The notes under the pieces: model-generated
Database searches by the model: none
The model's input: the letters and a program-made list of their open reading frames with translations, nothing else
What the model was told of the DNA's origin: nothing
Program-made: the position numbers and the translations under genes
NCBI RefSeq assembly: GCF_003334815.1
Contig: NZ_QOWO01000101.1
From: Escherichia coli
Lineage (GTDB): Bacteria > Pseudomonadota > Gammaproteobacteria > Enterobacterales > Enterobacteriaceae
Length of the DNA: 1,307 nucleotides
Strand: one strand, 5' to 3'
Shown: positions 1-888 of the stretch, one piece after another
Layout: each line of letters starts with the position of its first letter
Numbering within the stretch: the first letter of the stretch is position 1

Positions 1-50
1 GACCCGCCGCAACGACGAAGAGCGCGTGCGCGAAACGGCGTTGCCCCTCA

Positions 51-76
51 CATCCCGGCGGCCTTTTGCCGGGATG
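51..76. other. GC-rich stem-loop (9-bp stem, 8-nt loop)
   Basis: CATCCCGGC (51-59) pairs with GCCGGGATG (68-76); loop GGCCTTTT. A second small hairpin GCGACCG-GAA-CGGTCGC lies at 111-127. Confidence 0.6.
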
Positions 77-290
77 CCGGGAGCGCAGGTCACGGCGCGA
101 CAGAGGCGGCGCGACCGGAACGGTCGCTGCAAGCCCGGGGTTTCGCGTCAGGGATGGAAGCCCGCCAGGGCGGAGACAGCTCCGCTGGCTCCGTTCACGA
201 CAGCCCGCCCCGCCAGGGGGACGCCCGGAAAAGGCATAAGCAGGAGAACAACAAAACAGACAGTAATCAGAGCAGCAGAAAAAAGAAGAA

Positions 291-353
291 CAGTAGCAGT
301 AGCAGTAGCAGTAGCAGTAGCAGTAGCAGTAGCAGTAGCAGTAGCAGTAGCAG
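291..353. repeat. perfect hexanucleotide tandem repeat (AGTAGC)x10, written CAGTAG x10 + CAG; simple-sequence repeat / VNTR-type tract
   Basis: Ten uninterrupted copies of a 6-bp unit at 292-351, with a partial copy on each side, read directly from the sequence. Imperfect AGC/AGA/AAG triplets precede it (271-290). It produces the poly-Ser, (Ala-Val)n, (Ala-Thr)n and poly-Leu runs seen in four ORF-track translations. Confidence 0.97.
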
Positions 354-425: not shown

Positions 426-459
426 TGAAAGGGGCGGCGCGTCAGCGCGGCCCCTTTCA
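426..459. other. GC-rich stem-loop (10 bp + G.G mismatch + 4 bp stem, 4-nt loop)
   Basis: TGAAAGGGGC (426-435) pairs with GCCCCTTTCA (450-459); inner GCGC (437-440) pairs with GCGC (445-448); loop GTCA. Pairing checked base by base. No clean U-tract follows. Confidence 0.7.
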
Positions 460-605
460 GCGCCACCGGCGCGCGGTCTTTTCCCGGCGCGGGCAGACAG
501 GCATTTATCCTCCCGCCTGCCCGGCGTCTTCAGGCCCGCAGACGAATAATCATCATCGGAACACGTGTATAAGCAAACATGCCGCTCGACAGCTCCCCCG
601 GGAAT

Positions 606-637
606 GCAGAAGACGCCAGCAACGTCTTCTGCTGGCG
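606..637. terminator. terminator-like hairpin made of two overlapping, mutually exclusive palindromes; possibly bidirectional
   Basis: GCAGAAGACG (606-615) pairs with CGTCTTCTGC (623-632), 10-bp stem and 7-nt loop. Alternatively CGCCAGCA (614-621) pairs with TGCTGGCG (630-637). On the plus strand it is followed by TGATTTGTT (T-rich); on the minus strand it lies 9 nt past the stop of the 646..888 ORF and is followed by a pyrimidine-rich UCUUCUGCAUU. Neither U-tract is canonical. Confidence 0.35.
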
Positions 638-645
638 TGATTTGT

Positions 646-888
646 TCAGACCTCTGTCGAGCCGATCCATATACCATTCAGATAAGCATCAAATGCATCG
701 TTCCCCTCCTGCACTTCCTGCGGCTGAACAAGGTTCAGGCTTTCGTGTGTCCAGCCGGCTTCAGGTGCAGACACTTTCAGCAGAAGATGCCCATCAGAAT
801 CACGAATCTCCAGATCAGCAAACGTGTTCCCGGTCAGGATATCTGGTTCACCGGGTCGTTGATCTGTAACATATGTGATATATCCCAT
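646..888 (-). CDS. small acidic hypothetical protein, 80 aa
   Basis: Minus-strand ORF: ATG at 886-888 (complement), TGA stop at 646-648. A GGAG Shine-Dalgarno (plus 896-899, complement) lies 7 nt upstream of the ATG. Protein: MGYITYVTDQRPGEPDILTGNTFADLEIRDSDGHLLLKVSAPEAGWTHESLNLVQPQEVQEGNDAFDAYLNGIWIGSTEV, with 14 Asp/Glu against 3 Arg/Lys. The ORF track extends it to a GTG at 916-918, and an in-frame ATG at 901-903 is also possible, but neither has an RBS. A palindromic hairpin begins 9 nt past the stop. The overlapping plus-strand ORFs (565..906, 579..869) are Cys/Arg-rich and lack an RBS, so the minus frame is preferred. No family recognised. Confidence 0.5.
   Translation of the reverse strand: MGYITYVTDQRPGEPDILTGNTFADLEIRDSDGHLLLKVSAPEAGWTHESLNLVQPQEVQEGNDAFDAYLNGIWIGSTEV

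Follow-up and report, generated by a model that had tools for sequence, protein, structure and literature searches.

A perfect double palindrome behind a small leading-region gene of IncF-type plasmids, derived by pair-perfecting changes in a methyltransferase pseudogene fragment

Why should two perfect palindromes overlap just behind the stop codon of a small plasmid gene, how did they arise, and do they end a transcript there? The DNA analyzed (1,307 nucleotides from Escherichia coli, contig NZ_QOWO01000101.1; hereafter the window) reads GCAGAAGACGCCAGCAACGTCTTCTGCTGGCGT at 606-638. A sequence-only reading had described two overlapping and mutually exclusive palindromes at this place, one at 606-632 with a 10-bp stem and one at 614-637 with an 8-bp stem. 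The pair was borne out, as both palindromes are perfect in sequence and an inverted-repeat finder gave 100% complementarity for the arms of each (Table 1). The first stands as described, whereas the second is one pair longer. Bases 613-615 and 630-632 are common to palindromes A and B, and therefore only one hairpin can form at a time. As gene-sense (minus-strand) RNA the two are nearly iso-energetic, with A at -15.3 kcal/mol (-17.3 with two extra loop pairs) and B at -15.6 kcal/mol. The DNA fold of 600-645 gave -11.2 kcal/mol (z -3.2) on the plus strand and -12.1 kcal/mol (z -4.7) on the minus strand. RNA folding of 595-650 on both strands, the check that the sequence-only reading had proposed, gave z scores of -2.3 (plus) and -2.1 (minus). 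Mononucleotide-shuffled windows had a mean of 0.046 perfect stems with 9 bp or more (loop 3-10), and 3.5% of shuffles had one or more of them. The double palindrome is real and beyond chance.

Table 1 Positions of the features discussed, in window coordinates
Feature	Position	Strand	Basis or structure
Frpo / ssi class-1 single-stranded DNA (ssDNA) promoter repeat	1-296	-	homology to F plasmid Frpo1 and Frpo2
Strong GC hairpin with flanking A-tract and T-tract	426-459	.	TGAAAGGGGCGGCGC-GTCA-GCGCGGCCCCTTTCA
Pseudogene remnant, last ~40 codons of a class I SAM-dependent methyltransferase (ydcA / M.EcoGIX-like)	530-655	-	alignment with intact genes; translations
Palindrome A	606-632	.	arms 606-615 (GCAGAAGACG) and 623-632 (CGTCTTCTGC), 10 bp, 7-nt loop
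Palindrome B	613-638	.	arms 613-621 (ACGCCAGCA) and 630-638 (TGCTGGCGT), 9 bp, 8-nt loop
GTCTGAA microhomology (plus strand TTCAGAC) at the junction of the 80-aa gene end and the methyltransferase fragment	645-651	-	sequence comparison
Conserved 80-aa leading-region gene	646-888	-	tblastn; annotated CDS in L001 and L002

Thousands of enterobacterial plasmids contain a match to the window, and of its 12,774 places in E. coli genomes 12,633 are plasmid-borne; the window is the leading region of IncF-type conjugative plasmids. In two annotated relatives (L001 and L002) it lies a few kb from traM/oriT and the SLT gene, with ssb, psiB, hok and a ParB-like gene as neighbors, all on the minus strand in window orientation. 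Every real gene of the window is likewise on the minus strand. Since the transferred strand serves as the template for leading genes (PMC9849209, PMC11541004), we infer from gene orientation and oriT synteny that the plus strand of the window is the transferred T-strand. The promoter repeat at the left end has 91% identity to Frpo1 of the F plasmid (NC_002483) over 2-296 and 95% identity to Frpo2 over 1-247, both of which have been characterized by experiment as ssDNA promoters, and it drives minus-strand transcription of the next operon leftward (PMC9849209, PMC12672017). Window positions 1 to ~650 are themselves a repeat present in ~3 copies per plasmid (L001, L002). Each Frpo-type copy of L002 is followed by a 68-aa ORF annotated as single-stranded DNA-binding protein (for example 8697-8903, 10351-10557 and 15764-15970), and L001 has the same layout except that one 68-aa copy is annotated as a truncated pseudogene. 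The Frpo element and its small ORF appear to have been duplicated as a cassette, and thus the methyltransferase 3' end would have travelled with one copy.

The gene behind which the palindromes lie is the last of a minus-strand mini-operon composed of a 68-aa SSB-like ORF, a 98-aa ORF and the 80-aa ORF. Searches of Pfam and NCBIfam gave no family for any of the three. By tblastn, homologues of the 80-aa gene were found in 459 plasmid records, including those of Vibrio, Citrobacter, Pseudomonas and Aeromonas. Among the species-representative genomes, in which such plasmids are nearly absent, a peptide-pattern scan for this gene found no relatives and a DNA-pattern scan found one true relative (L004) plus two unrelated chance matches. 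The stop codon occupies 646-648 and the stem begins at 638, 7 nt past the stop. The sequence-only reading had placed the palindromes immediately 3' of a small ORF. There is no real small ORF on the plus strand here; the plus-strand ORFs at 425-640 and 579-869 run antisense through the methyltransferase remnant and the real minus-strand gene. Public records call the 46-aa ORF of the remnant (530-670, minus strand) a "hypothetical protein" (P0001), and frameshifted plus-strand "hypothetical proteins" are annotated across the Frpo block, where the window has plus ORFs at 26-382, 154-549 and 425-640. These annotations look like artefacts. In practical terms the 46-aa protein is better read as a methyltransferase gene fragment and the plus ORFs across the Frpo block as spurious.

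In other plasmids the 80-aa gene is followed by a terminator. In IncI1/IncK plasmids the homologue (90% amino acid identity) is followed by AAAAAGCAGGGTTGCCCCTGCTTTTC, a textbook intrinsic terminator, and in a Buttiauxella MOBF plasmid by AACCCCGCGCUGCGGGGUUUUU, a canonical intrinsic terminator 7 nt after the stop. As the homologues are followed by terminators and the window stem also lies 7 nt past the stop, the 80-aa gene seems often to be the last in its transcription unit. The IncI1/IncK plasmids (L126 and L127, ~2790-2850) also carry a second 9-bp hairpin, GCCGGATTT...AAATCCGGC, after the canonical terminator and ahead of the next small ORF.

In the window the stop codon is followed by something else. 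The junction was mapped by comparison of the window with the IncI1/IncK homologues, which are without the methyltransferase fragment, with an intermediate lineage described below (L128-type) and with methyltransferase genes. It falls at the heptamer GTCTGAA, which includes the TGA stop of the 80-aa gene, and what lies beyond is the 3' end of the methyltransferase gene. Repeat-copy alignment places the intact methyltransferase gene directly upstream of the Frpo2-type copy in these plasmids. Its C-terminus reads ...CLNGPRQQEKLLPFSDVREELPRGTFAYTDVPTMIIRLRA, that of the window minus strand ...GLNKSRQQKTLLASSAFPGELSSGMFAYTRVPMMIIRLRA, and the remnant retains a stop codon at 530-532. RefSeq labels the fragment of L001 an "incomplete... 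missing N-terminus" methyltransferase. When the remnant translation was compared with 5.8 billion proteins, the search returned only the 46-aa remnant ORF and no intact methyltransferase having a remnant-like C-terminus. The palindromes correspond to the codons QQKTLLASSA of a dead gene fragment, and the recombination behind the IncF arrangement removed the native terminator of the 80-aa gene.

Given this parentage the palindromes could be compared with their source. A metagenome pattern scan gave 120 loci, ~100 of which had intact methyltransferase 3' ends. These ends are nearly uniform over the homologous 32 nt, 81 being TCAGAAAACGGTAACAGCTTCTCCTGCTGGCG and the others one or two bases off. 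In the intact gene 6 of the 10 pairs of A and 6 of the 9 pairs of B are Watson-Crick, with G-U pairs in addition in the RNA sense, and the DNA shows no significant fold (-4.9 kcal/mol, z +0.2). The 14 window-type copies that were fetched, 12 from metagenome contigs and the others from L001 and L002, all have GCAGAAGACGCCAGCAACGTCTTCTGCTGGCG apart from one singleton variant; they differ most often by a 1-nt change in a C-run that is not part of the stems. Both palindromes are perfect in these 14 copies and in 210 plasmid records (at least 98.3% identity over 590-655), and a perfect palindrome A is confined to this lineage. Seven of the eight differences between the window and the intact methyltransferase create Watson-Crick pairs, the eighth being in a loop. 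When eight random substitutions were simulated, the observed 19 pairs were reached in none of 2,000,000 runs. With outgroup methyltransferases (L132-L134, ~60% identity) polarity is ambiguous for four of the eight differences. When the simulation was repeated from the most conservative ancestor, which has the remnant state at the ambiguous sites, both palindromes became perfect in 29 of 3,000,000 runs.

A second lineage stands between the two. This L128-type lineage (L128, L129 and the metagenome locus L030) comprises IncFIA-type plasmids found in 17 nearly identical plasmid records, in which a copy of the 80-aa gene with 82.5% identity precedes a shorter fragment, TGAACGGACCATGCCAGCAGGAGACGCTACTGGCATTTTCTGGCATCC, that starts from the same junction. 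It shares four differences from the methyltransferase with the window, including those that make the B arm complementary, and its hairpin B reads ATGCCAG...CTGGCAT followed by UUUUCUGG. Relative to the window B carries a double compensatory change, C-G to T-A. In this lineage the ancestral UUUU run is retained directly behind the stem (tail score -3.89), and a good hairpin A is missing (-4.2 kcal/mol). The stability of the RNA increases stepwise, from -6.4 kcal/mol in the methyltransferase to -11.4 in the L128-type and to -15.6 to -17.3 in the window. The aligned sequences show the recombination, the conversion of B before A and the pair-creating nature of the substitutions, with the reservation on polarity given above. 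The origin of the double hairpin, by the perfecting of pairs in a methyltransferase pseudogene fragment that had been joined to the stop of a small gene, is well supported by these comparisons. Only three discrete haplotypes exist, each internally near-invariant (window-type, 210 records; L128-type, 17 records; intact methyltransferase, thousands), and this rules out the usual covariation analysis.

The pattern of change in B points to a mutational route. Positions 616, 617 and 619 of the 613-621 arm differ from the methyltransferase and now match the 630-638 arm, which is identical to it, although polarity is secure at 616 and ambiguous at 617 and 619. An imperfect ancestral inverted repeat lies at the same place. 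As the three changes are clustered in one arm and the other arm is unchanged, we infer replication template switching between the arms. Such switching creates and repairs perfect stems in single events (PMC8794818), and PMC5941160 and PMC7202029 likewise describe such stems and seemingly compensatory changes. That A and B exclude each other is probably incidental to the overlap of two quasi-palindromes and not the mark of a designed switch.

Does the element terminate transcription? The stem of an intrinsic terminator is stable, contains GC, is 5-14 bp long and encloses a loop of 3-8 nt; it lies just downstream of a same-strand stop codon, and a U-tract follows it directly. On the gene-sense strand both A and B have such a stem and such a location. 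Neither has the U-tract: what comes after B is CUUCUGCAUU and after A AUUCCCGGGG, with tail scores of -2.65 and -2.35, where the canonical terminators nearby score -3.9 to -4.1. A loose terminator scan does not flag the minus strand. The window lineage broke the ancestral UUUU run when perfecting A. On the plus strand B is followed by the T-rich GATTTGTTCA, as the sequence-only reading had pointed out, and passes the loose scan with a tail score of only -2.45. The plus strand of the window has no gene and no sigma-70-like promoter.

A stronger candidate lies ~190 nt beyond the palindromes. The hairpin at 426-459 (-21.3 kcal/mol as DNA, z -6.5; tail scores -3.9 on the minus strand and -3.5 on the plus strand) is nearly invariant between the repeat copies. 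It has the form of a canonical bidirectional terminator-like element and is probably the methyltransferase gene's own terminator. It would stop transcripts of the 80-aa gene in any case, and the need for a terminator at 606-638 is not obvious. The proposal of a terminator for either strand is not supported, given the lack of a plus-strand gene or promoter in the window, the poor U-tract on the minus strand and this stronger hairpin. The companion proposal of a transcript boundary fared better, since the palindromes do sit at a gene boundary with the 80-aa gene on one side and the GC-rich Frpo block on the left, and the homologues bear terminators there; they do not, however, lie after a plus-strand ORF. 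Early-conjugation RNA-seq has been published for F and pESBL (PMC12672017), and the palindrome element is absent from F.

Polymorphism was scored in 15 sequences, the 14 fetched window-type copies and the window. The remnant outside the hairpins (76 nt, 530-605) has 12 variable sites, 10 of them non-singleton, whereas the 33-nt hairpin region has two, both singletons (Fisher one-sided p = 0.14 for all sites and 0.022 for non-singleton sites).

The reading that we favor, to which we give a probability of roughly 0.4, is that pair-perfecting, template-switch-like substitutions made a 3' stem-loop that works in the gene-sense RNA, as a weak terminator or as a stabilizer of that RNA. Illegitimate recombination at GTCTGAA placed the final ~120 nt of a methyltransferase gene behind the stop of the 80-aa gene, and the joined fragment carried along the 426-459 hairpin and the Frpo promoter. 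In the fragment, by then non-coding, a weak quasi-palindrome became hairpin B in a step common to the second lineage, with hairpin A added in the window lineage, nearly all of the substitutions creating Watson-Crick pairs. In gene-sense RNA the stem-loop would then be a transcript-end hairpin, an inefficient stop or pause for polymerase and/or a shield of the mRNA 3' end against exonucleases. It would stand in for the canonical terminator that follows the 80-aa gene in other plasmids and may help to insulate the mini-operon from the downstream Frpo-driven operon. We favor this reading because of the position of the stem-loop, the intermediate lineage with its U-tract, the compensatory pair and the low polymorphism. 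With haplotypes so nearly invariant there is hardly any independent covariation, template switching could also have produced the one compensatory pair, and the invariance across 210 plasmids may reflect recent common descent.

The closest competitor, almost as probable, is a neutral origin. The arms would have been homogenized by template switching at two overlapping quasi-palindromes after coding ceased, with no function in RNA or DNA, and the regular single-strandedness of this DNA in conjugation would plausibly have favored the switching. The one-sided cluster of three substitutions in B is the classical signature of this process, which can yield a perfect stem together with apparent compensation in one event (PMC8794818). 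The palindrome at 1000-1010/1029-1039 shows a similar contrast, with perfect arms in the window and imperfect ones in related copies, and the missing U-tract and the canonical terminator already present at 426-459 also speak for this reading. A purely neutral history must, however, explain changes to A on both arms, which need several events, and a hairpin that lies exactly where homologous genes bear terminators. Retention of hairpin B in two lineages, one having the compensatory pair, and the reduced polymorphism of the hairpin relative to the flanking remnant (p = 0.02) also count against it.

Several of the changes convert G-U wobbles of the gene-sense RNA into Watson-Crick pairs. As these wobble positions are C-A mismatches on the plus DNA strand, the changes matter most for DNA, and this raises the question of whether the hairpin acts in the incoming strand. 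If, as gene orientation and oriT synteny suggest, the plus strand is the one transferred, a T-strand hairpin could make complementary-strand synthesis or template-strand transcription halt for a time shortly ahead of the Frpo block, and so add to the Frpo roadblock and prolong the single-stranded state of early expression. In F a Frpo-type stem-loop stalls complementary-strand synthesis (bioRxiv 10.64898/2026.01.09.698686). We think such a role unlikely. A 10-bp hairpin of -11 kcal/mol as DNA is tiny versus the 426-459 hairpin and the stem of Frpo, it is missing from functional Frpo2 copies whose methyltransferase genes are intact, and the F plasmid has no counterpart.

A bolder proposal, which we consider distinctly improbable, is a translation-sensing or entry-checkpoint switch, its iso-energetic and exclusive hairpins recruited de novo from a dead gene fragment. 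In one version a ribosome stopping 7 nt upstream would block B and favor A, so that what becomes of the transcript would depend on translation of the small gene; a ribosome at the stop of the 80-aa gene would indeed be expected to cover part of the 5' arm of B. In the other version the hairpin of the incoming strand would be an added checkpoint for complementary-strand synthesis or ssDNA-templated transcription before the Frpo roadblock. Transcription attenuators have mutually exclusive hairpins in a 5' leader ahead of the gene that they regulate, together with a sensing event (ribosome, ligand or protein). The hairpins here are mutually exclusive and nearly equal in energy; their place is 3' of the gene, both are poor as terminators, and the operon that follows is served by an ssDNA promoter of its own. 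The simplest account of mutual exclusivity is two overlapping ancestral quasi-palindromes, and nothing here supports a translation-sensing switch.

It is very unlikely that B followed by GAUUUGUUCA serves as a plus-strand intrinsic terminator that stops antisense transcription into the leading genes from the left: the loose scan flags it, as the sequence-only reading would have it, but its tail score is poor, the window offers no plus-strand gene or sigma-70-like promoter to supply a transcript, and any such transcript would meet the stronger bidirectional hairpin at 426-459 first. Least probable of all is an operator, in which a dimeric DNA-binding protein would recognize the 10-bp inverted repeat and its 7-bp spacer on the double-stranded plasmid, for which perfect dyad symmetry speaks and against which stand arms that do not recur in 20 kb bar chance matches with one mismatch, the lack of a nearby promoter, an origin from coding sequence and two overlapping dyads where one would be expected.

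The element also falls outside several known families. It is single-copy (211 places in 210 plasmid records), and in 20 kb of the leading and transfer regions of L001 and L002 the arms of A and B have no repeats apart from the chance matches just mentioned; we therefore rejected a dispersed repeat as well as an operator on the grounds of the single copy and non-recurring arm motif. An Rfam search of both strands found no credible family for the palindrome region. We also rejected a part of the Frpo promoter, because homology to F Frpo1 and Frpo2 stops at window position 296 and Frpo2-type copies are without the hairpins. Frpo / ssi class-1 promoters are defined by homology and by a long stem-loop that rebuilds the -35 and -10 boxes. 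The palindromes share with them the locus, the strand logic and the capacity to form a hairpin in the transferred strand, but their stems of only 9-10 bp are far too short for such boxes, and they lie outside the Frpo homology and are absent from functional Frpo2 copies.

Three other known systems come closer. With intrinsic terminators, including those of the IncI1/IncK and Buttiauxella plasmids, the element has in common a stable GC-containing stem-loop with a short loop, 7 nt past the stop at the end of a small operon, and the sister L128-type lineage has hairpin B with UUUUCUGG. The window lineage differs in having no U run after the stems, two competing stems of equal energy and a stronger terminator 190 nt downstream. 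mRNA-stabilizing 3' stem-loops (REP/BIME and intercistronic elements that block 3'-to-5' exonucleases) are similarly stable, free of a U-tract and placed right after a coding region, and the window has a second example after the neighboring ORF (1000-1039). REP/BIME elements are a dispersed family of many copies, whereas there is one copy of this element per plasmid. The third likeness is to quasi-palindrome template-switch products (the Ripley model; the E. coli thyA hotspot; Monttinen and Loytynoja 2022), in which an imperfect repeat is perfected by clustered changes in one arm and a sister lineage shows an apparently compensatory change. Here two overlapping repeats were perfected, and the event is read from natural plasmid variants with polarity partly resolved. 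The element may be summed up as a 3' intergenic stem-loop of known type with an instructive origin.

Leading-region genes are expressed in the first minutes after conjugative entry and many of them are anti-defence genes. If the stem-loop is functional, it shows how leading-region operons are insulated from each other and gives a clean natural case of a regulatory RNA or DNA structure that pair-perfecting mutation has made from a pseudogene. A stem-loop with no function would be a compact illustration from nature of how template switching perfects palindromes in DNA that becomes single-stranded again and again, and a warning that perfect hairpins, and even compensatory changes, in plasmid intergenic DNA need not imply function.

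Some minor observations concern the surrounding sequence. The second perfect palindrome, CCCCCTGATTG / CAATCAGGGGG at 1000-1010/1029-1039 (11 bp, 18-nt loop; DNA fold -11.2 kcal/mol, z -4.4), lies just past the stop of the neighboring 98-aa minus-strand ORF and is without a U-tract. The homologous repeat is imperfect (8/12 to 9/10 pairs) in F and in the other copies of L001 and L002, and it may be another quasi-palindrome perfected in the window lineage. Between the Frpo core and the GC hairpins, at 291-353, lies a perfect hexanucleotide tandem array, (CAGTAG)10.5, that produces long spurious ORFs on both strands. Its length differs between copies, that of L030 being ~45 nt shorter, and the region is absent from F. 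In the Frpo spacer (374-392), AACAAATGAC and AGGTCTGAA are complementary, in permuted order, to GTGATTTGTT (637-646) and TTCAGACCT (645-653), which lie at the gene end and the hairpin flank. In the whole-region DNA fold 384-395 pairs with ~645-656 to form a long-range stem around the remnant. The AAAT at 640-643 was found in the window lineage only.
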